Source of the DNA: a virus
Lineage: Duplodnaviria > Caudoviricetes
DNA length: 64,000 nucleotides
Strand: one strand, 5' to 3'
Virus record (IMG/VR): IMGVR_UViG_3300029305_003110
Coordinates: 64,001-128,000 of that record
In this document: piece after piece, positions 31,243 to 64,000 of the stretch
Numbering within the stretch: the stretch's first letter is position 1
Layout of the letters: each line of letters opens with the position of its first letter
Notes under the pieces: generated by a model
What the model was told of the DNA's origin: nothing
The model's input: only the letters and a program-made list of their open reading frames with translations
The model's database searches: none
Translations under genes and position numbers: made by a program

Positions 31243-31293
31243 TTCCTCTCATATTTATTTAAATGTTTTTAGATATATTATCAACATAAAATT

Positions 31294-31585
31294 AAAAAAA
31301 AAGATACCTGCTGGTTACAGATATCTTTTTAAAGTTATATTGTTACATCTACGGTAATAATATGTAAAACAATCATTCAAAATCACGGATTTATCATATT
31401 AGATAAATCCGTAAAATATATTTTTAAATATTATATGATGGTATTAACATAATTATAATTATCAACGTTAATTACTCTTTAAGATATATACATTTATAGT
31501 CACCTCCTTATAGAATATAAATATATACCGGTATCTTAAAGAGTAATTTATTTGCGGAATCTAGAAATTAATCTAGATTCCGCAT
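31294..31585 (+). ncRNA. Candidate structured non-coding RNA
   Basis: AACA-N6-TA at 31283-31294, several hairpins, no ORF of note, ends at hairpin 31553-31584. Confidence 0.4.
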
Positions 31586-31593
31586 TATATTTT

Positions 31594-39350: not shown

Positions 39351-40565
39351 TTATAATGTGATCGTCTTTAAATCAATCTTCTTTATAGATGCTGTACTAT
39401 TGTGGAATTTCTTCATATTTAAATTAAGCATAGTTGACGATACTTTAGATGCTGTCAATCCGATATTATCTATTCCTAGTTTATCATACATTGAGCCTGC
39501 ACAAACTCTACATAAGTTATCACTAGTACAGTACATAGGAGAGCGAAGTTTTACTGTTTTATTCATATATTTATCAATATTAGTTTCATCTAAATGAACG
39601 ATTTTTCCATTCTCAATAATATTTCTATACATTAAATCTTGTTTGACCCAAGGTGTTATTGTTATTTCAAGATATCCTTTACTTCCACAATCCGAGCCAG
39701 GGGCATCTAATACAATACCCTGAAATGCTGCTGTTAATTGTTTTGAAAAATAACCAGAAGTCTGTGTTCCTACTGCTTTAGGATAAGCACCGGTTATAAT
39801 CGCCGTACCATATGATGGAATTTCTTCTTTTCGAATTCCTTCCATAAAGTTAGATTGAACCATATCCCATTTTCCTGTAGTTGGATTAAATACGGGTCCT
39901 TTCATAACGGCAATATTTTTATAGTTGTTATCGAATGAACCTTTTGCACCAGAATTATATAAATCCATACCAGGATCATCTTTCATTTCTTTTCTTGCTA
40001 AAGCTTTAACCTCTTCTTCAACTTTAACAGCAGTAACGACATTACCGTCATCTAATTCTTTTTTATTTTCTTTTATCAATTTATCTCTCAATTTAATAAC
40101 ATTTGCATCCGGTTTTAATATTTTCATTGTAAAAGACCCAGAAAATATTGAATTGAACTGGTATCCTAACCACTGAGTTCTATTTAAATATTTTGCCATA
40201 TCCTCTACAGTGATCTTATCTGTTAATAAAGCTTTTGATAATTTATCTTCAATACCGGAATGTGTTTTTGCATTTATTGGTGTATTTATATACCCAACAA
40301 TATCAGAAAAACTTTCTTCTATTATCAATTTATTATAAATAAATAATCCGATATTTGTAGTTATCTTTTCCTTATTAAAATATTCCCCTTTTTCCAATGT
40401 AAAAGTATCATATGTTTTATACTTACTTGGAATTACACGAAATTTTTTTGTTTCTTTATCGACAATACTTCTATCAGCAAAATTGGTTTCAATAAATTCT
40501 GCTGTAATATCATCAGGTTTTAAATTTAAAAAGAATTGTTTTTGCTCATTTGTTAATATAGACAT
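39351..40565 (-). CDS. rpoC: RNA polymerase beta' subunit, C-terminal part (probably virion RNAP)
   Basis: TTNIG...N, SGAKG, SNFMEG, TQTSGYFSKQL (bridge helix), DCGS, LRSPMYC, CRVCAG, NIGL, MKKFH (trigger loop). In a late-promoter unit. Confidence 0.88.
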   Translation of the reverse strand: MSILTNEQKQFFLNLKPDDITAEFIETNFADRSIVDKETKKFRVIPSKYKTYDTFTLEKGEYFNKEKITTNIGLFIYNKLIIEESFSDIVGYINTPINAKTHSGIEDKLSKALLTDKITVEDMAKYLNRTQWLGYQFNSIFSGSFTMKILKPDANVIKLRDKLIKENKKELDDGNVVTAVKVEEEVKALARKEMKDDPGMDLYNSGAKGSFDNNYKNIAVMKGPVFNPTTGKWDMVQSNFMEGIRKEEIPSYGTAIITGAYPKAVGTQTSGYFSKQLTAAFQGIVLDAPGSDCGSKGYLEITITPWVKQDLMYRNIIENGKIVHLDETNIDKYMNKTVKLRSPMYCTSDNLCRVCAGSMYDKLGIDNIGLTASKVSSTMLNLNMKKFHNSTASIKKIDLKTITL

Positions 40566-41017
40566 AAGTCATTATCCCACCCTTCAGTTGGTGCTAATAT
40601 ATTATTATCTATTACAAATTTAATTATTTCGAGATAATCTGAATTTGTTATATTATATGTCATGTTTAATGTATATGTCGGAACGCCCAATGCTTGTGAT
40701 AAAATTGCTGTATATATTTTTTTATATGCCTCATTTTTATTATGCTCACAATAATACAGCGGATGGTGTATTAGATAATCTATAATGGCTAAAGTAATAT
40801 CAGTTTCTTTCAATCCGTATCCAATATCTATTATATTAAATAATATCGAATCATAGATATTTTCAGCTCTTTCTCTTGATATAATATTAAGTGTTACTAA
40901 TACTGACAATTTTGTAGAAATTATTTTTCGTAATAAAATATACTCATGAAGATACTCTTTATCCGTTTTCAAATCATCCACATCATCGTATATTGTATCA
41001 TATATTGTGTTTTTCAT
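40553..41017 (-). CDS. Hypothetical protein
   Basis: 154-aa ORF with RBS, late-type promoter at 41054-41065. Confidence 0.6.
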   Translation of the reverse strand: MKNTIYDTIYDDVDDLKTDKEYLHEYILLRKIISTKLSVLVTLNIISRERAENIYDSILFNIIDIGYGLKETDITLAIIDYLIHHPLYYCEHNKNEAYKKIYTAILSQALGVPTYTLNMTYNITNSDYLEIIKFVIDNNILAPTEGWDNDLCLY

Positions 41018-53897: not shown

Positions 53898-54326
53898 TTA
53901 CTTATTGTTCTTTTTTATATCGACCAATGTTTTTTCAATTAAATTCGTTATGTATATTTCCAAATTACCAAATACTTTAGTCAATACTTCTTTCATTTCA
54001 TCAGACATCATATTGAGCATCATGTCTAGTGCAGTTTTTCGTATTTCTGCAACTTCTTCTTCAGTTAATTTTCCATCTGAAGCTTTAGCTCTGTATTCTT
54101 TTACAATAGTAGCATTCAACGATTCTACTACTTTTACCGCATTATCTGCGGCATACGATACAAACATAGCAATCTTCTCGTTATTTGTTTTTTCGAGAAT
54201 TTCTTGCTTTTTAGTATTGATGAATTTAGTAATTAGTGCAGCGAGATATGAGAATATTGCGAGAAGTAAAATACTGCCACCATTATCCAAAAGAACATCA
54301 ATGTTGCTTAAAAAATTACCATCCAT
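53898..54326 (-). CDS. Holin (LL-H-like)
   Basis: N-terminal TM helix, DGKLTEEE, YITNLIE. Confidence 0.7.
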   Translation of the reverse strand: MDGNFLSNIDVLLDNGGSILLLAIFSYLAALITKFINTKKQEILEKTNNEKIAMFVSYAADNAVKVVESLNATIVKEYRAKASDGKLTEEEVAEIRKTALDMMLNMMSDEMKEVLTKVFGNLEIYITNLIEKTLVDIKKNNK

Positions 54327-54369: not shown

Positions 54370-54993
54370 TTAAATTACAAACGCGTCAATACCTTTTTCT
54401 TTAAGCTCTTTTGCAAACTTTTCAGCTACTCTTCTATTAGTTCCCACAGCAGCTTGTACTCTATAAACTTTATCACTCTTCATTTCAATGTCATCAGCAA
54501 GATATCTGCGAATAGCTTTTGCTATAGCACACCCGATAACTTCTGTAGATTTTATTTCTGAAAATATTGTGATGGATGGATAAAGTATCTCTATTTTAAC
54601 CGATGGAATAACGTTTGATAAATTCTGATCAGTTTCACATTTTACGCCAAGACCCTTGATACGTGATTTGTTTCGTCTTATTTCTTTATAAATTCGTATT
54701 GCACAGTTTTTACTCACTCTGTCGTCTTCTGGATATGATGCTCGGATTTTAAAGCCACCTTCAACATATTTGTGCGAAATGTGACAAAACAAAGTTGCCT
54801 TCATTTTTTCTGCCTCATCATCTCTTTTATTTATTTCTGTGGATTTAGCTGCAGTAAACACGGAAATTCCTCTTGAACGCAATTCCCTATCCACAATTTT
54901 GGCAATTTTTTCAGAATATTTATAATCACCGTGTTCTAAAAAAGGAAACGGTTTTTCTACAGCTATTGGTGACAAATAAACTATTTGACTCAT
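54370..54993 (-). CDS. Amidase_3-like protein with C-terminal SPOR domain, active site degenerate
   Basis: VYLSP, R...A....A.LF..ISH, PSVKIE, AIAKAI..YL, VYRVQAAV..NR..AE.FAKELKEKGIDAFV. Confidence 0.65.
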   Translation of the reverse strand: MSQIVYLSPIAVEKPFPFLEHGDYKYSEKIAKIVDRELRSRGISVFTAAKSTEINKRDDEAEKMKATLFCHISHKYVEGGFKIRASYPEDDRVSKNCAIRIYKEIRRNKSRIKGLGVKCETDQNLSNVIPSVKIEILYPSITIFSEIKSTEVIGCAIAKAIRRYLADDIEMKSDKVYRVQAAVGTNRRVAEKFAKELKEKGIDAFVI

Positions 54994-55006: not shown

Positions 55007-55480
55007 TTAAAAATATTTATTAACAGTATTTAACAAAATCTGTTCCAATTCTGAACTATAACCAAATCTATCTTTATTACATTTAATAGATTCCTTTATG
55101 TCCCCATTAGAATGTCTCATGCTTGCGGCTTTCCAATCACAAATCATTTCGACCAAATCAACTAAAGTCATTCCAAGAATACCATCATCGTGGTATTCTG
55201 GGTGATGGGGATTATGTTTATAGTGATGGTCTAATGCGACATTCATTTCTTTTAAAAAATCTTTATATTCATCAGACATATAAGTGGAATTTTTAAGTTT
55301 TGGAGTATACTCATCAAAAATCTCTTTTTCCGGAGATTTTAATTTTGAATCATCATGCGTTGTTGCTCGCAAAATCAATTCATCAATAAGTATTCTCATA
55401 TTTTCCTTTACATGAGATTTATGCTCTAATGTATCATTAGAGCTAGAATATTTCGGTATAGAAGTATTTCCAAAAATCAT
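55007..55480 (-). CDS. HD-like protein (DUF5662-like)
   Basis: TLEHKSHV, HDDSKL..PE, ALDHHYKHNPHHPE, EMICDW. Confidence 0.75.
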   Translation of the reverse strand: MIFGNTSIPKYSSSNDTLEHKSHVKENMRILIDELILRATTHDDSKLKSPEKEIFDEYTPKLKNSTYMSDEYKDFLKEMNVALDHHYKHNPHHPEYHDDGILGMTLVDLVEMICDWKAASMRHSNGDIKESIKCNKDRFGYSSELEQILLNTVNKYF

Positions 55481-55495
55481 TTTAGTTCACCTCAC

Positions 55496-55681
55496 TTAAA
55501 TAGTTAAAAGCCAGATTATTATATTATATATACTTACCATAGTGCATGTTAATAATATTATCATAAATAATGAATTGATATTTAACTTTTTTATATTACA
55601 CATTAATATTACGCATATGGTTAAAATTATACATGACATTGCAAACAATGCATCGTTTAATGACAAAACCATTACAATCAC
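55496..55681 (-). CDS. Small two-TM protein
   Basis: Hydrophobic 61-aa ORF coupled to thyX. Confidence 0.5.
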   Translation of the reverse strand: MIVMVLSLNDALFAMSCIILTICVILMCNIKKLNINSLFMIILLTCTMVSIYNIIIWLLTI

Positions 55682-57000
55682 TCTTTTTTATATTTTTCTT
55701 TAAGTTCTGCTGATCGACCACAACTCATTTTCCCTTCTTTACATACACCATATACACAAGGCGGTAAAGCATTTTTAAATATAGTCGGTGAAATTTTAAC
55801 CAAACTATCGTATTTTTTGGTATACATATTTCTTATCTCTTCCTGTGCAGTTAGGCATAAACGTTCTCTAAATATAAATGTATCATTTCTAGCATTAGAA
55901 GACACAATAAATTTTATATAAAAACAGTTTAAGAATAAAGGATAATAATACTCATGATTAACAGAACTTATGTTATTAAATAGGAATGTTTTATATTCTG
56001 AAACCAAATCAACATATTCATCATAAAAATCAGAGTTCTCAATTGTTTTAGGAACATAGAAATCTCTATATTTGTCGTATATTAACATATCTAAATCTTC
56101 TGTGTATATATTTTGCAATCTATGTCTTATCACTTGATGATATGCTGATAATGAGCATGACATGCCATAAGTTGTTCTCGATTGTTCGAGTATACCCATA
56201 TGTCCATATCCAAATGCCACTCGATTTATTAATCCTTCGGTTTTAGCTTCTTTATCATCCCACGAGTTGTATACTTCTAAACCAGAACAACTATTTGTAC
56301 TTGTGAGTGCACCAATTGCTATATTGTCGTCTGAATTTATTGAATCAACACTTACAATGTCGCCAGGGTTAATCATATGAAGTAATGGGTCGTAAACTGA
56401 ATGTATTAATTTATAATCTTCGTTAAGAGAAAACGCTAAACCGTAAAGTTTAGCATGTAAAGTGCTTCCTATATACAAGTTCAGTTTAGTTGTAACATCT
56501 TTAAATACTATTGGATATTTAAAACATAATCGATACAGATCAACCAATTTATCACCACTCATAGTTACTGCAATATTTGTAGTCGTTGCTAAAGGCAATA
56601 TGTATCTAGCATCTTCATATGGTATTCCATGCACAAAATCATCAGCAGTCAAACGACCTTTTTTATTAGGGTCTTTCAATTCTGTCATTTTCTCATATAA
56701 ATGAAAAGATTTGTGTATCAATTCTTTAGCATTTCCGTGTTCTGTAACATAACTATCAAAATGTGGATGGAGCACATATGAGTCCGCACCCATACCAACA
56801 TATCTCTGTGATTGCTGAACGTATGAATCTCCTAATTCGCACAATAACATACTTTGTACTCTATTAGCCCCAGTTATAAGAAAACTAATATTAGCAGTTT
56901 TAAGAATAGTTCTCATAGTATGTTCATTTGCTTGGAATTTTTTGTCAAGTTCCATATTAATCATATTCAACATACTCATTTTAAAATTTTCAATTTTCAT
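55678..57000 (-). CDS. thyX: FAD-dependent thymidylate synthase, tandem-domain type
   Basis: SYVQQSQRYV, GIPYEDARYILP, GHMGILEQ, HQVIRHR, ERLCLTAQEEIR. Confidence 0.88.
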   Translation of the reverse strand: MKIENFKMSMLNMINMELDKKFQANEHTMRTILKTANISFLITGANRVQSMLLCELGDSYVQQSQRYVGMGADSYVLHPHFDSYVTEHGNAKELIHKSFHLYEKMTELKDPNKKGRLTADDFVHGIPYEDARYILPLATTTNIAVTMSGDKLVDLYRLCFKYPIVFKDVTTKLNLYIGSTLHAKLYGLAFSLNEDYKLIHSVYDPLLHMINPGDIVSVDSINSDDNIAIGALTSTNSCSGLEVYNSWDDKEAKTEGLINRVAFGYGHMGILEQSRTTYGMSCSLSAYHQVIRHRLQNIYTEDLDMLIYDKYRDFYVPKTIENSDFYDEYVDLVSEYKTFLFNNISSVNHEYYYPLFLNCFYIKFIVSSNARNDTFIFRERLCLTAQEEIRNMYTKKYDSLVKISPTIFKNALPPCVYGVCKEGKMSCGRSAELKEKYKKE

Positions 57001-57149
57001 TGCATTTTCCTCCTTATTTTTAAATCCGTTATAAATTACTGACTTGTTTATAAAATAGTATTTTTTAACATTTTGGGTATATATTATTTATGTAAGATTA
57101 AAGAAATTTAATCAAATATATTTTATTTAAAAAAGGAGTATCAAACATC

Positions 57150-58034
57150 ATGAAAGAACAGAAAGTAACAAACAAGTTAGAAGAATTGCTTGAAAAAGCA
57201 TCCATTGGTGGAGGAAACATAACAAAGCGTGACTTAAAAGGTATCGAAATAACTTCAACAGAAGCTCGTTTTCTTGTTGAAAGATATTATGATATGCAAA
57301 AAGCACGTATTGCTACAGGTAATCAAAAGTTCGCGAATGAACAAAATGAAACAGAATCAGGAATTCTTAAACTTATAGTCCAGTCATATAGAGATATGGA
57401 AGACTTGATAAGAAAGATTCTGGATATATATGTCGACAGTCACCCCGTAGGTCAGTGGTTAAAATCCATAATCGGAATAGGACCAGTTCTGGCTGCAGGA
57501 CTTCTTGCATATATAGATATGAGTAAAGCTCAAACAGCAGGAGCTATTTGGAAATATGCTGGATGGGATGTTGGTTATAAAAGACCAAAGAGAGGTGTAA
57601 AGCAAGATTACAATCCTAAGTTTAGAACACTTTGTTGGAAAATTGGAGATTGCTTTATTAAATGTCAAAATAATAAAAACGATATATATGGTCATTTATA
57701 CAAAGAGAAAAAGGAATGGTATATTGAAAAGAATGAAGCTGGTGGATTTGCTGATAAAGCTGCATATGAGTTATCATTAAAGAATTATAAAACAACTTCA
57801 GAACCTTATAAATACTATTCCGAAGGTAAATTGCCTGCGGGTCACATTAATGCTATGGCATCCCGTTTTGCTGTAAAGATTTTCTTATCACACTTATTTG
57901 AAGTATGGTATAAATATGAGCATAACGGTGAAATGCCACCAAAACCATTTGTTGAAGAACATATGGGTCATGTCCATATTATTAAAGCTCCAAATATGGA
58001 AATAATTGATAATTACATAGCTACAAAAGCATAA
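57150..58034 (+). CDS. IS110-related Nop-domain protein without RuvC domain (TIGR-Tas TasA-like)
   Basis: LVERYYDMQKARIATGNQ coiled coil, WLKSIIGIGPVLAAGLLA, IWKYAG, YNPKFRTLCW, GHINAMASRFAVKIFLSHLFEVW. No DEDD RuvC and no SG motif of IS110 Tnp. Confidence 0.65.
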   Translation: MKEQKVTNKLEELLEKASIGGGNITKRDLKGIEITSTEARFLVERYYDMQKARIATGNQKFANEQNETESGILKLIVQSYRDMEDLIRKILDIYVDSHPVGQWLKSIIGIGPVLAAGLLAYIDMSKAQTAGAIWKYAGWDVGYKRPKRGVKQDYNPKFRTLCWKIGDCFIKCQNNKNDIYGHLYKEKKEWYIEKNEAGGFADKAAYELSLKNYKTTSEPYKYYSEGKLPAGHINAMASRFAVKIFLSHLFEVWYKYEHNGEMPPKPFVEEHMGHVHIIKAPNMEIIDNYIATKA

Positions 58035-58050
58035 TTATCAAAAAAAAAAT

Positions 58051-58090
58051 AAATAAAGGTAATGGACGGTTAAATCCATTACCTTTATTT
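58051..58090. terminator. Bidirectional terminator
   Basis: aaataaaggtaatgga/tccattacctttattt stem flanked by A and T runs. Confidence 0.8.
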
Positions 58091-58092
58091 TT

Positions 58093-59019
58093 TTATATCA
58101 TTTTTATGTGTGTTCCGTGAATATATCCTTCATCATTATCATATTTTATTTTATACCAACCATCTGGTGTTATATCGAGTATATTAACTTGCGATAATTT
58201 TGGTATAGTTCTAATTTCCTTAGATTTATAAATTCTCGGATGACGCCTTATGTGCGAACCTCCATTGGATATTATTATCCCTTTCCGTTCAACCCCATCA
58301 TATGTGTTATATATATGCTTATTTTTACTATATACAATCAATGCAGAAGGTGAACGTCTTTCTTTAAATATTGATTTATTTACAGTTTCATTTCTATATA
58401 TCATTTGGGATGACCTATTTCCTATATCAAAAGCTATTTTACATCCAAGGTCTATCATTAATTCCGAAGATTGTTTTATAGTTAATCCTCTATTTAATAA
58501 TCCTTTTTTATCGACAACACATAGAACAAAATCACCATTATGTTTTTGACCAAGTAAAGTTCTTTGATTTCTTTTTCTTGGTTGTTCCGGCATAACAAAT
58601 AATTCATCTTCAGTCATATGATAATTTCGTTTACCATTAATAACTAAAGTCCACATGCACCTAATAGCCCATTTGGCGCCTAGTTGATAATCTACATACC
58701 GTTCAGGATTAGTGGTATATTCTGCAGATAATATACCATTATTCCATAAAACAGCAATAGGATATTGATCTAATAATTTGGTATAGTATAGGTCTTCTTC
58801 TGATATTGATGATATATACTCGGGATGATTATCTAGTGCAGAAAATCCTCCGTTTACTTTTAAAATAACTTCTTCATCTTTATTAGGCGTACCATCTATT
58901 TTAGATATATATTCCATTTTATTATTTCCTACGGAAACATCTAACCTACAATCATCTGTAGAAAATTCAAATATATGACAATCAGATGAATATTTACGTA
59001 GTTTTTTATATTTATACAT
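58093..59019 (-). CDS. Phosphodiester glycosidase (NAGPA-like) with C-terminal SH3b
   Basis: VNGGF, RTLLGQK.NG..VL.VVD, GLTI.Q..ELM.DLGC..A.D.G, and the SH3b pattern IR..P....GWYKIKY...GYIH. Confidence 0.7.
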   Translation of the reverse strand: MYKYKKLRKYSSDCHIFEFSTDDCRLDVSVGNNKMEYISKIDGTPNKDEEVILKVNGGFSALDNHPEYISSISEEDLYYTKLLDQYPIAVLWNNGILSAEYTTNPERYVDYQLGAKWAIRCMWTLVINGKRNYHMTEDELFVMPEQPRKRNQRTLLGQKHNGDFVLCVVDKKGLLNRGLTIKQSSELMIDLGCKIAFDIGNRSSQMIYRNETVNKSIFKERRSPSALIVYSKNKHIYNTYDGVERKGIIISNGGSHIRRHPRIYKSKEIRTIPKLSQVNILDITPDGWYKIKYDNDEGYIHGTHIKMI

Positions 59020-59132
59020 TAATATTACCCCCTCAAATTTCTTTTTAAATAAAAAAAGAAATTGATATTTATTATAAAGTTTTTATAGTTTTTAAAAATA
59101 ACATAGATAGATAGAATGTAAAATCATTCTAT

Positions 59133-59537
59133 CTATCTATTTTTTATAATATATTTTATTTTTTTAATGGCATCATGTAATGAATTAAATAAAAACAATT
59201 CATCATCATTTTTACGTAAATTCGTATCCTTTGAACGTTCATAAAATGGTTTTATTGCAGAGACCCATCGTATTGGACGAAGAGTATGATAGACTACATT
59301 ATGTAGATATATTTCTATCATCATCGACCTGTCACTTCTATTCCAATTGTCAAGGTTGTATATTTCTGCAAATTGTTTAATTCTTTCGATTAGATGTACC
59401 CTATCAGCGTGTCCTTTTACCATATATGTATTAGTTACTCTTATATTTGGGTTCTTATCCATAGTATAATCTTCAATTCTAACTTTAATTCTATAAAGTA
59501 TATACTTATGGTTATGTGGTTGCATACTATATTTCAT
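59133..59537 (-). CDS. Hypothetical protein
   Basis: 134-aa ORF with RBS, late-type promoter at 59577 and a terminator at about 59104-59140. Confidence 0.55.
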   Translation of the reverse strand: MKYSMQPHNHKYILYRIKVRIEDYTMDKNPNIRVTNTYMVKGHADRVHLIERIKQFAEIYNLDNWNRSDRSMMIEIYLHNVVYHTLRPIRWVSAIKPFYERSKDTNLRKNDDELFLFNSLHDAIKKIKYIIKNR

Positions 59538-59655: not shown

Positions 59656-60153
59656 TTAATCTGTTTTATTTATATTATATTTGAATGATTTTTCTAATTG
59701 TAATAGATTATTTCTTATAGATGGCATATTATAATATGCCCGTATAATAGATTCTGTATCGATAAAGTATTCTAAATCTTCTTTTTTATTTTTCTTTAAT
59801 ATAGAAATGGTTTTACTTATAGATTTAATTTCTGATTGTGTTAAATTATAATCAGATTTGATATATTTTAAATATTCTATAGTATCAAATAATTTATTTT
59901 TATTATAATTTATAATAGATTCTATACTATCTTTATCTTTAGGTCTGATAATAAAATTATCAAATTCTTCTAAGTAGTAATCGTCTAACATAATTAGATA
60001 ATTATTTATTTTTGTTTTATCGGTTAATTTAGTTATTGTATAAATATCTCTATTATAATTATTTTGTAAATAGAATGCTATTATATGATATTTAAATTCT
60101 GATATAGCTACAATTTTATTATTTATTTTATTTAATATAATATATAGTTTCAT
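59656..60153 (-). CDS. Hypothetical protein (family with 51914 and 52386)
   Basis: AAGGAGG RBS; LYII.NK...IVAISE.K....F N-terminus. Confidence 0.6.
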   Translation of the reverse strand: MKLYIILNKINNKIVAISEFKYHIIAFYLQNNYNRDIYTITKLTDKTKINNYLIMLDDYYLEEFDNFIIRPKDKDSIESIINYNKNKLFDTIEYLKYIKSDYNLTQSEIKSISKTISILKKNKKEDLEYFIDTESIIRAYYNMPSIRNNLLQLEKSFKYNINKTD

Positions 60154-60506: not shown

Positions 60507-60788
60507 TTAAATAAGTTTTTTATTTTTAAGAAATGCTATCCTTCTATCTATAGCACGTATACTTCTACCAATTTCATTACTTATAGTTGTTATATCACAA
60601 TTTTCATTATATAAATTTATTAATCTTTGTTCATCCTCTTCTGTCCACGGTACTGGTTTTTTACTTCTATTTTTTATTATATTTTCATAATGATCAATAA
60701 TTGTAGTATATGCTTCTATTCCTTCTTTTGGTATTTTATTTGATATGCACAATTTTGTCATTATCTTTTTTGCTTCAAGAAAATTCAT
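60507..60788 (-). CDS. Myb/HTH-like DNA-binding protein
   Basis: WTEEDEQRLINLY...TISNEIGRSIRAIDRRI. Confidence 0.7.
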   Translation of the reverse strand: MNFLEAKKIMTKLCISNKIPKEGIEAYTTIIDHYENIIKNRSKKPVPWTEEDEQRLINLYNENCDITTISNEIGRSIRAIDRRIAFLKNKKLI

Positions 60789-60894: not shown

Positions 60895-61128
60895 AATGAC
60901 GTTAAAGACATATAAATTATATATGTTGACGACGTCAGGAGGTTAATGGTGACATCTGCAGAGACAGTGCCCATTAATATCAAAACTGATTTACTTATCC
61001 AAGTTTTTAGAAACCAGCTTTGTGGTTATTCTATTAATGAGGAACATACAAAATTAGAGAATACACTCGTATGAGTATTTATATATGGAATCCAATATAG
61101 TATGTGACTATATTGGATTCTTTTTTTT
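60895..61128 (+). ncRNA. Candidate structured RNA (contains a 42-codon ORF 60946..61074)
   Basis: AACA-N6-TA at 60884-60895, stacked hairpins, and terminator gaatccaatatagt/actatattggattc plus T tract. Confidence 0.4.
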
Positions 61129-61197
61129 AAACGAATTTGTGCTTTTTTAACATAGGAAACAATAAGTTAAATATATAAAATGAAGGAGGATGTATAT

Positions 61198-64000
61198 ATG
61201 GTTTATTTACAAAATATTCCTCATCAAAAAGTTTATCGGCAACGTGTATACTTGCCAAAAGATGAAAAAGCTGCAACTATGTATAATATTATATTTAGTA
61301 ATAATAAAGATATTAGTGCAACTTTAAATTTAATGAAACACCCATTATTATTATCAAATCACAAATATCTTAATTATTACATAGAACCTATGTATTATAC
61401 TAAAATTGGTGCAAAATCTGTACGTCTAAATTATAGACAGGATAGAAAAAATGTTTATGATAAAATAGATTCGTCTATAAAAATGATTAATACGCCAACA
61501 ACGTTTGATTTATTAAAAAATCGTAATGTGTATTACGATTTATTTATGAATAATTCTATATTTTTTAAGAATATTAAAGCTACTTCAATTCAGAAAAAAG
61601 TTGAGATATATGTACAATATTTAAAAAATTTAATAGTTGATAAAAAGTTCGATAGCTATAAAACTAAAATTATAGCAATGGACGTAGATTCTTGGATGTC
61701 TAATTCAGATATTATAAATAATCCTATTATGTTATTATTTATAGCTTATAGAAAATATTTTGACATATTTAAATCTATAGGCAATATCGATATTGTATTT
61801 TACACGGATTCATTAATTTTAAGAGTTAATCCATCTCAATGTAGCGAAAAGACATTTCCTATATTTAAACGTGAATTAAATAAATTAATAAAAACTGTAA
61901 ACATTGAAGATGATGATATCGTCGATAAAGAAATAGAACGTCAAGAAGTTAAGGATGACATTAAAGACATTGTAAAAGATGACGTGTTTCATTTTGTTGG
62001 TGATACTGACAACGATGATGTAGATGAAACTATTATCGATGATACCGTTGATGAAATTGTAGATGATGCTGAAGATAAAGAATTAACTAAAAAGGAAATA
62101 GAAAAGCGATTAGAAGATAAATTATCTAATGATACGGAAATTTTAAAAACTATGCATGAAATACGAAAAGAAAAAGTTATCGGAAAATCGGCAGCATCAA
62201 TAAAGCGTGATGAAGAATTAAGAGAAAAACAAAAGAAGTTAAAACTCGATAATATTAAAATTGAGGATTACAAAGACTTCTATGATAGAAATGTTGAAAT
62301 TCCAGAAATAGATATTTCCGATAAGATAACTACTACTAATGAAAATGTAAAAAAGATTAAATTTACCAATTTTGAAAAGACTTACAATGATACATTAATG
62401 AAAAAAGATTTTGTAAATATTATAACCAATCTTAATACTAAAAGTGTTCCAGTTTATATTAAAGATATAAAAGTAGAAGACACTTCTGACGAGCTTAATT
62501 ATAAAGAAACTTATACAGTAAGTCTTGAAGATACAAATAGAGTTAGACATACCATTAAGGTTGATATGCCGAAATTTATTGAAGATAAATTTTTATATCT
62601 CGGTGGTAATAAAAAAATTATTGTTAAGCAATTACTTATGAAGCCTATTGTTAAAATAGACCCAGATAGAGTAAGATTAACAACAAATTATAATAATATT
62701 ATGGTAAGTAGATATGGGAATAAAGTATCTGCTAAGAATGAAAAACTTAAAAAAGTTTTATCTAATACAATTCCTGGAGTTAAAGTTGAACATGGCGATT
62801 CAACTATGGTTAATGTAAAATACAAATCTATATTAGAATATGATGACATAGCTAAAACTATATTAAAAATAAAGACCAATAATTATGAATTGTTATTTAA
62901 TCAGGATGAGGTTCATGATAGATTGGGTAATTTAAAATTAACTTCAGATGATTTTTGTGTTGGATTTTATTCTGACGGGAAACCTATATTGATGAGTTAT
63001 AAAACTGAAAAAATCGGTGATATTGATTTATGTGATTTTATAGTTTCTAACAGTAATGATAAATTAAAAGAAATTTATGAAAATACTAAATCAACAGGAA
63101 CTAGATTTATGTATTCTAGAGCAAAAATAATGCATAAACATGTACCATTAATATTACTTCTTGGGTATTGTGAAGGTATTTCGACTGTATTAAAGAAAGC
63201 GGAAATAGAGCATTATTTTACAGACAAACGACCATCGTTAACAGACCAACAAGGATATATACAATTCGAAGATGGATACTTAATATATGATAAATATCCA
63301 TTTGAAAATTCATTATTATTAAATGCATTACAAGGAATTCCAACAAAATCATTCACATACGATTCATTTGATGATAAAGAAGTTTATATTGAATTATTTG
63401 AAATTCTTTATAATGCAAGAAATCTCGCAAATGCATTTGATTCATTTTATGAATTTATGATTGACCCAATTACAAAAGAAGTGTTAAATGATTCAGATTA
63501 TCCAACAGATTTTGTGTCATTATTATTATTTGCCAATTCGTTATTAGTTGATAATTCATACGTGCTGGAAAATGATATGTCGTTATATCGTGTACGTTCA
63601 AATGAAATAGTAAATGCTATATTACACAAACATATTGCAGATGCATATGCCAAATATAGAGTTACAGCTAATAATAGAAATCCTGTTAAAATATCAATAC
63701 CTAGAGATGCGGTAATTAAAGAAATATTAACATCAAATATTGTAGAAGAATTTTCAACACTAAATCCGATATATGAAACAGAAAAACTTAGAGCAATTAC
63801 GCCTAAAGGTCCAAGCGGATTGAATACTGAAGGCGCATATGACCAAGCAAAGCGTTCATATGATAAATCTATGGTAGGACTAATGGGCATTTCAACATCA
63901 CCAGATGCTAATGTTGGTATAGTACGTCAGTTGACAATGGAACCAAATATAGTTGGACCTAGAGGATATATAAACGTTTCTGATAATCTTAATGATATCA
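61198..64000 (+). CDS. rpoB: RNA polymerase beta subunit N-terminal part (probably virion RNAP), runs off window; not in ORF track
   Basis: AGGAGG RBS, ATG at 61198. Contains VDMPKF....FLYLGGNKK and ends ITPKGPSGLN..KRSYDKSMVGLMGISTSPDANVGIVRQL (beta fork-loop region). Late-type promoter at 61158. Confidence 0.88.
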   Translation, partial: MVYLQNIPHQKVYRQRVYLPKDEKAATMYNIIFSNNKDISATLNLMKHPLLLSNHKYLNYYIEPMYYTKIGAKSVRLNYRQDRKNVYDKIDSSIKMINTPTTFDLLKNRNVYYDLFMNNSIFFKNIKATSIQKKVEIYVQYLKNLIVDKKFDSYKTKIIAMDVDSWMSNSDIINNPIMLLFIAYRKYFDIFKSIGNIDIVFYTDSLILRVNPSQCSEKTFPIFKRELNKLIKTVNIEDDDIVDKEIERQEVKDDIKDIVKDDVFHFVGDTDNDDVDETIIDDTVDEIVDDAEDKELTKKEIEKRLEDKLSNDTEILKTMHEIRKEKVIGKSAASIKRDEELREKQKKLKLDNIKIEDYKDFYDRNVEIPEIDISDKITTTNENVKKIKFTNFEKTYNDTLMKKDFVNIITNLNTKSVPVYIKDIKVEDTSDELNYKETYTVSLEDTNRVRHTIKVDMPKFIEDKFLYLGGNKKIIVKQLLMKPIVKIDPDRVRLTTNYNNIMVSRYGNKVSAKNEKLKKVLSNTIPGVKVEHGDSTMVNVKYKSILEYDDIAKTILKIKTNNYELLFNQDEVHDRLGNLKLTSDDFCVGFYSDGKPILMSYKTEKIGDIDLCDFIVSNSNDKLKEIYENTKSTGTRFMYSRAKIMHKHVPLILLLGYCEGISTVLKKAEIEHYFTDKRPSLTDQQGYIQFEDGYLIYDKYPFENSLLLNALQGIPTKSFTYDSFDDKEVYIELFEILYNARNLANAFDSFYEFMIDPITKEVLNDSDYPTDFVSLLLFANSLLVDNSYVLENDMSLYRVRSNEIVNAILHKHIADAYAKYRVTANNRNPVKISIPRDAVIKEILTSNIVEEFSTLNPIYETEKLRAITPKGPSGLNTEGAYDQAKRSYDKSMVGLMGISTSPDANVGIVRQLTMEPNIVGPRGYINVSDNLNDI

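Follow-up and report, generated by a model that had tools for sequence, protein, structure and literature searches.

How is an RNA-guided protein provided with guides when no guide array lies beside its gene? The question is raised by tasA, a gene in a 64,000-nucleotide stretch of viral DNA (the window) that comprises bases 64001-128000 of the linear, ~85% complete phage record IMGVR_UViG_3300029305_003110 (209,768 bp); positions below are those of the window unless marked "genome", which refers to the whole record. A sequence-only reading of the window had described the tasA product as an orphan, domesticated relative of the TasA proteins with no array next to it, and supposed a guide of some other architecture supplied in trans. 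It is likely that this protein serves a dual-repeat TIGR-Tas system as its nuclease-free effector and that the guide array of the system is physically separated from the gene. A canonical 36-unit array is present in the same record, ~110.7 kb from tasA and on the opposite strand, with the same repeats that stand beside tas in the closest relatives. The guides thus seem quite probably to be supplied in trans by an ordinary TIGR array that has been relocated and not by a new architecture, and TasA would then be no orphan. The lack of an adjacent array and a supply in trans agree with the earlier description; the orphan status and the unusual guide do not.

A Tas protein without a nuclease

The 294-amino acid product of tasA matches the NCBIfam model NF052498 (TIGR_Tas_endo, "TIGR-Tas system RNA-guided endonuclease") with 190.7 bits (E 3.2e-56; the cut-off is 100); the match to NF052498.1 spans model positions 1-214 of 215 and amino acids 39-253 of the protein, and a search of the whole record with the Tas profile gave one match only (191.3 bits). 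When PDB sequences were searched with a profile of 26 homologues, TasR (9mty) was found at 6e-29 and TasH at 1.5e-18, and the recombinases IS621 and ISCro4 at 1.6e-6 and 2.6e-5, respectively. The AlphaFold2 (AF2) model of the protein is confident (predicted local distance difference test, pLDDT, 85.8; predicted template modeling score, pTM, 0.83). In it, a short helix at the N terminus leads into a coiled-coil hairpin made of helices 36-65 and 71-96, which is followed by a Nop-type helical domain, a loop and a last helix; the coiled-coil hairpin and Nop fold of the solved Tas structures are thus both predicted to be present. Foldseek searches with this model place TasH and TasR chains at all of ranks 1-10 (E 1.3e-7 to 1.3e-6, TM 0.53-0.73), and the next matches are ISCro4 (7e-3) and IS621 (3e-2). 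The sequence motifs on which the family assignment had originally been based (IGIGPVLAAGL, IWKYAG, YNPKF and GHINAMASRFAVKIFLSHLFEVW) are all found in the translation. As had also been seen in the sequence, only ~35 residues precede the coiled coil, whose first helix begins at residue 36 in the model; neither a RuvC nor an HNH domain can fit there, which makes the protein a TasA, and no nuclease family was found in Pfam and NCBIfam scans of it. The solved proteins SpTasH (Salicola phage CGphi29; 9w03, 9w04, 21kl) and TaTasR (9mty) have the same coiled coil and Nop fold (Foldseek E ~1e-7) but differ in their HNH or RuvC nuclease, absent here, and are only 20-27% identical to it.

The name "transposase" is attached to PHROG 4285, which matches the protein at E 2.5e-42 (a name rather than a test), and to one nr record, and there is a weak Pfam match to Transposase_20 (PF02371; 20.9 bits, amino acids 103-140), as might be expected if tasA were the remnant of an ordinary truncated IS110-family transposase. 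This Pfam match lies under the gathering score of 21.3, however, and the IS110 equivalog NF033542 gives only 24.5 bits against a cut-off of 140, far from what the Tas model gives against its own cut-off; likewise, the sequence and structure matches to Tas proteins are orders of magnitude above those to IS621 or ISCro4. The protein has 922 homologues at E ≤1e-3 among 1644 candidates, many of them on contigs of 160-320 kb, 33 columns are invariant across 26 sampled homologues, and its relatives adjoin TIGR arrays (below). A transposase remnant is accordingly extremely improbable. The IS110, IS621 and ISCro4 bridge-RNA recombinases do have a homologous Nop-like RNA-binding domain (1.6e-6 by profile, 7e-3 to 3e-2 by Foldseek), but the tasA product lacks their DEDD RuvC domain, scores far under the family cut-off and would use arrayed tigRNAs instead of a bridge RNA. 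Membership among the Nop5, Nop56 and Nop58 proteins of box C/D small nucleolar ribonucleoproteins was considered and rejected: a Pfam scan that admitted E values up to 10 gave no Nop family match (none to PF01798), and no Nop5 chain is among the Foldseek matches listed. Judged by its sequence and modeled structure, the tasA product is a genuine nuclease-free TasA of the TIGR-Tas family and not a truncated IS110 transposase, as the sequence-only reading had recognized. Exactly the same protein is present on 11 contigs, the longest of 209,779 bp, and the nearest homologues (P0002-P0004, 67-75% identical) are on ENA or Logan contigs.

The dual-repeat Tas clade is marked by an extended C-terminal loop with a Y/H dyad for tigRNA processing; in SpTasH, Y289 and H296 are reported to catalyze tigRNA maturation (PMC13421893). 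Residues 258-283 of the tasA product are modeled as a 26-residue loop. H296 of SpTasH aligns to H274, which is invariant in 26/26 and 8/8 aligned sequences, and Y289 aligns to F267, a position at which the relatives have F or Y.

A dual-repeat array at a distance

The TIGR array came to light when the self-identity of the whole record at period 36 was scanned (periods 17-19 and 34-38 were covered), with peaks of 0.57-0.68 at genome 9.3-10.3 kb; the search for ~36-nt periodicity that had been proposed from the window alone thus yields one array in the record (Table 1). If the genome were circular, the distance to tasA the other way round would be at least ~97 kb. In the array, 36 loop repeats (consensus ATAGTATCA) alternate with 37 edge repeats (AAYGARTCA); 72 repeats entered the parse, and the spacers between them are 9 nt long except that 10 of 71 are 10 nt. 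The first edge repeat is truncated at its 5′ end and the last at its 3′ end, where it runs into a terminator, which is the array layout described by Faure 2025 (PMC12045711, section 4). Edge positions 7-8 are TC in 35/35 cases, and position 6 of each edge repeat can pair with position 3 of the next at 33 of 35 junctions (22 A-U, 8 G-C and 3 G-U); a fraction of 1e-5 of 100,000 permutations reached 33 pairs, and the controls, in which positions of the same repeat or of every second repeat were compared, contained 8 A.C each. It is this covariation that marks AAYGARTCA as the edge repeat, and, since plus-strand RNA would have C.A in place of the three G-U pairs, the RNA strand of the array is the minus strand. 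An extra edge base pair backed by covariation is also described for processed tigRNAs by Faure 2025 (PMC12045711). No long open reading frame (ORF) is present in the array region, and no further array units were found elsewhere in the 209,768-bp record. Near-identical repeat variants (ACTGTACCA, then AACGA(A/T)TCA, then TTAGTA(T/A)CA) and similar spacers recur at genome 9503-9557 and 9866-9920 on the minus strand, which suggests a segmental duplication within the array.

The dual-repeat TIGR-TasA systems, for example FpTIGR of Flavonifractor plautii (Faure 2025, PMC12045711), are similar in being phage-borne with a solo Nop-domain Tas, in their two alternating 9-nt repeats, 9-nt spacers and 36-nt period, and in their truncated first and last edges, terminator and edge covariation, a likeness that is to the published description and not to the FpTasA sequence. 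In that description, the array is directly upstream or downstream of tas, whereas here it is far away on the other strand; arrays of 5-15 units are the most frequent there, and this one has 36; and box C here is UCA where the consensus has CCA, with A-U in place of G-C where the box D position pairs. All parts are in other respects canonical for dual-repeat TIGR-TasA, and what differs is the separation of tas and array, the array length, the UCA of box C and the Phe in the processing dyad.

The window itself contains no such structure, as the sequence-only reading had said of the gene's flanks. Tandem Repeats Finder (TRF) returned no period-34-38 row among its 74 rows for the window, self-identity scanning of the window at periods 17-19 and 34-38 gave no array-like peak, and no repeat-motif pairs were found near or inside tas. 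TRF also failed to report the distal array when run on that region. A scan of the whole record for chains of box C(3)-N9-box D(2) gave no chain longer than 3 in the window, and of the real array it picked up no more than 4-unit fragments, as the spacers vary by +/-1 and the repeats are degenerate. The top match of that scan, at genome 38.9 kb, was rejected as a coding sequence for a hexapeptide-repeat protein with a period of 18/54, and a period-36 peak at genome 179.5 kb was rejected as an acidic low-complexity coding region. The former (genome 38556-39575, or L002 2557-3576, minus strand) is a 339-amino acid hexapeptide-type repeat ORF with ~9.5 copies of a 54-nt unit and a 247-amino acid paralogue just downstream; in motif-chain scans such an ORF resembles a TIGR array.

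Two non-coding regions of the window, at ~31.3 kb and ~60.9 kb, had been put forward as candidate guide RNAs for a domesticated, orphan TasA using a guide of other architecture. In favor of this, both are intergenic and end in hairpins, the 64-kb window has no array, and the Discussion of Xu 2026 allows that the Tas proteins of one TasR branch may lack an array and draw their guides from elsewhere. The TasR proteins of that branch are compact and have no coiled coil, unlike TasA here. Neither region has paired edge and loop repeats at 18-nt spacing, and Rfam searches at E up to 1 gave nothing beyond noise, the best E being 0.046, far under the gathering scores. With a canonical cognate array in the same genome and a TasA that keeps what is predicted to be a C-terminal loop of the dual-repeat type, such a guide is highly improbable. 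The first region, an intergenic gap of 350 nt (31243-31593), contains several hairpins (for example at ~31300-31330 and 31553-31585). The second (60900-61130, plus strand) is a G+C-richer non-coding stretch between a 93-amino acid ORF and a large ORF that starts at 61180; it has a strong hairpin and T-run at ~61087-61130 and from its sequence may be a small RNA or leader.

Relatives and the place of tasA in the genome

Relatives were collected as 80 IMG/VR loci with an alignment query (a single-protein query of IMG/VR gave no match). As a positive control, the same scans recovered classic dual-repeat arrays beside tas in these loci: an array-like signal lies within 3.5 kb of tas in 72 of the 80 (65 downstream and 7 upstream, median 219 nt), and only 1 of 32 6-kb chunks of the studied phage genome is at or above the signal threshold. 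The 8 loci under the threshold comprise four in which an array next to tas can be seen by eye (L004, L013, L077 and L079), one whose sequence stops 91 nt after tas (L033), two that are ambiguous (L015 and L029) and L044, described below. Prokaryote assemblies gave 57 more distant relatives (of many phyla, ≤47% identity, giving no host clue), and 30 of them have an array-like signal within 2.5 kb. The array adjacent to tas that characterizes the published loci is not found in the studied phage. The nearest IMG/VR relatives (L003, L004, L005 and L009; 47-52% identity, contigs of 65-320 kb) carry AATGAATCA/ATAGTATCA arrays on the tas strand, and these are the same two repeats as in the distal array; the array comes immediately after tas in L003, L005 and L009 and immediately before it in L004. 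When the 6 kb surrounding tas were compared by megablast with 50,697 phage records, no match was found.

The order of the surrounding genes bears on what became of the array. The thyX gene and further upstream genes are syntenic with L003 and L005 around tas, and downstream of tas a 165-amino acid ORF and a large ORF match the same two loci. The slot after tas in which L003 and L005 carry their array is filled in the studied phage by a 308- and a 134-amino acid ORF, which have no match in the 80 relative loci. Since the flanks are syntenic and the slot is filled by these two ORFs, the comparison indicates that tas kept its place and that the array is now elsewhere. The ancestral layout would have been thyX, tas, array; at present the slot after tas is occupied by a cell-wall hydrolase-like gene and a small ORF, and the array stands directly behind a hairpin that follows an unrelated 154-amino acid gene. 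That 154-amino acid ORF has no known family and has its own TATATATTAT motif (below). Hairpins also stand directly 5′ of the arrays in L003 (5890-5950) and L005 (6596-6660), as in the studied phage, and in L003 the hairpin is the tas terminator; read-through of these 5′ hairpins, or processing at them, may be how the arrays are expressed.

A chimeric or mis-joined contig would separate gene and array just as well, and the record, which is classed as linear, is a viral contig derived from a metagenome. The array region is matched with 0 differences by contigs of four faecal-metagenome DNA runs, all of them short, low-depth pieces of which none spans it. Against an artefact of assembly stand the occurrence of the exact protein on 11 contigs up to 209,779 bp long and the presence of the TATATATTAT motif at both loci. 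In addition, real genes fill the slot after tas between flanks syntenic with L003 and L005, so the array was not merely lost there by collapse, and in a relative (L044, in record G001) tas is preceded at a distance of 8-9 kb by two sub-arrays. We consider an artefact very unlikely. G001 is a related 62-kb phage record (L085-L088) whose sub-arrays, at 39540-39880 and 40530-40890 with an ORF between them, are another non-adjacent arrangement.

The tasA gene is the sole plus-strand gene within a run of minus-strand ORFs that extends from 53.9 to 60.8 kb, and ORFs and sequence bear out the earlier observation that it has a TATATATTAT motif and a terminator of its own. This motif occurs in 43 copies across the 209.8-kb record, often 30-70 nt before a ribosome binding site and ATG, and it is modestly enriched in the window (11 copies, as against 4.86 +/- 1.81 in shuffles; 1 of 100 shuffles reached 11); from its sequence and position we infer that it is a promoter. 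Two terminator-like sites were found where 0.3 are expected, and one hairpin with T-runs follows tasA (Table 1). The convergent 308-amino acid ORF has phosphodiester glycosidase (NAGPA) and bacterial SH3 domains and is likely a cell-wall-acting enzyme. On the other side of tasA, the ORF at 55678-57000 encodes a long ThyX-type thymidylate synthase (440 amino acids). Farther downstream, a very large ORF of >940 amino acids without known family occupies 61180-63999 on the plus strand. Near the distal array (L083 1-1248, minus strand) lies a homologue of the PHROG "RNA polymerase beta subunit". Together, the ThyX, the >940-amino acid ORF and the polymerase homologue are in keeping with a large phage that encodes an RNA polymerase of its own.

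Table 1. Features of the tasA locus and of the distal array (window positions unless marked genome)
Feature	Position	Strand	Basis or remarks
tasA ORF, 294 amino acids	57150-58034	+	
TATATATTAT promoter-like motif, 63 nt 5′ of tasA start codon	57078..57087	+	sequence
Putative ribosome binding site GGAG, 11 nt 5′ of tasA ATG (57150)	57135..57138	+	sequence
Bidirectional intrinsic terminator hairpin, common to tasA and convergent gene 58093-59019	58051..58090		16-17-bp stem, T-runs on both strands
Minus-strand ORFs upstream of tasA	53898-54326, 54370-54993, 55007-55480, 55678-57000	-	
Minus-strand ORFs downstream of tasA	58093-59019, 59133-59537, 59656-60153, 60507-60788	-	
Two ORFs: 308 amino acids with NAGPA and SH3_3 domains; 134 amino acids without family	58093..59537	-	ORF list, domain scan
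36-unit dual-repeat TIGR array, outside window	genome 10401-9087 (L083 2588-3902)	-	periodicity scan, printout, repeat parse
Array terminator, 19-bp stem and T-run	genome 9092-9048		
17-bp palindromic hairpin directly 5′ of array	genome 10435-10402		-23.2 kcal/mol, z -5.5

Predicted action of the probable split system and its meaning

By analogy with the systems studied so far, this TasA would dimerize through its coiled coil and bind 36-nt tigRNAs cut from the transcript of the distal 36-unit array; the binding of 36-nt tigRNAs by TasA is described in section 5 of PMC12045711. The cutting of the array transcript may fall to the conserved C-terminal loop of TasA itself, with His274. The two spacers of each tigRNA, A and B, would pair with opposite DNA strands of an 18-bp site, and, having no nuclease, the complex would sit on the DNA and block transcription or replication. 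An RNA-guided transcriptional repressor is what TasA is found to be in section 12 of the preprint by Xu 2026 (10.64898/2026.09.09.750476), in which MbTasA and catalytically dead TasR repressors are, like the protein here, nuclease-free RNA-guided DNA binders. These repressors are the best available functional model, although they belong to stem-loop systems without a processing loop and the present TasA is of the dual-repeat type with the loop.

Targets were searched for with 35 of the 36 units (the first was left out) in two half-site geometries. The phage's own genome gave matches at chance level, with 10 at ≤2 mismatches as against ~10 per control round, and one site with a single mismatch (unit 11, genome 136089-136106); the 80 related loci gave 9 matches, as against 16 in 3 control rounds. 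The targets of the array are thus probably outside the phage, and, being absent from its own genome, they would most likely be host genes or competing mobile elements.

That neither search rose above its controls also counts against the reading of TasA and array given above, and several other points do so as well. A hairpin stands between the upstream 154-amino acid ORF and the array. The loop repeat would put U opposite U where the canonical pair is box D-G with box C-C. The tyrosine of the Y/H processing dyad is Phe267 in TasA, which makes self-processing uncertain as judged from the alignment. Finally, the record is linear and ~85% complete, and the missing part could hold a second array or a closer arrangement.

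One might accordingly suppose that TasA and the array no longer cooperate, the array being a relic or serving another purpose, or TasA having lost guide loading; the distance and opposite strands, the Y-to-F change, the target searches without an identified target and the fact that no RNA run is among those listed as holding the array could all be read in this way. Against this, edge covariation is kept over 35 junctions, the repeats are well conserved (for example, the edge TC at positions 7-8), the truncated array ends and terminator are intact, and TasA keeps the residues that are invariant in its family. The array is, moreover, identical in contigs of four runs, which shows its presence in those samples and is silent on selection. 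Such an uncoupling seems to us unlikely, if less so than the alternatives considered above, and an effector served by its distant array is the preferred reading.

Effectors and guide arrays at separate loci that act in trans are familiar from CRISPR arrays remote from cas genes; the analogy is one of arrangement, as the protein family here is unrelated and the guide architecture different. Among TIGR-Tas systems, arrays adjoin tas in the published descriptions, with one arrayless TasR branch left open (Xu 2026, sections 6 and 13), and a literature search whose scope did not include the supplementary tables of Faure 2025 or Xu 2026 gave nothing on tas loci that are split or orphan. Arrays were sought by Faure 2025 in 5 kb on each side of tas (PMC12045711), and the scope of TIGRFinder is given as "surrounding tas loci". 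A tas gene that seems arrayless can have a canonical array far outside the few-kb neighborhood of the published pipelines, and a whole-contig period-36 self-identity scan finds arrays that TRF and local searches miss.

The phage would offer a natural case of action in trans, with an array that is probably transcribed separately from tas, and its 36 natural guides have targets that could reveal the role of a nuclease-free TasA for a large gut phage. More speculatively, split TIGR-Tas could be a regular arrangement in large phages, with effector and long array ~100 kb apart and separately timed, and the 36 guides silencing genes of the host or of rival elements during take-over; we regard this as possible but doubtful at present. 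In the catalogue described by Xu 2026 there are 20,096 tas loci and 6,685 arrays, so roughly two-thirds of the loci are without a detected array. If the split arrangement were regular, many of these loci would be split systems and not arrayless ones.

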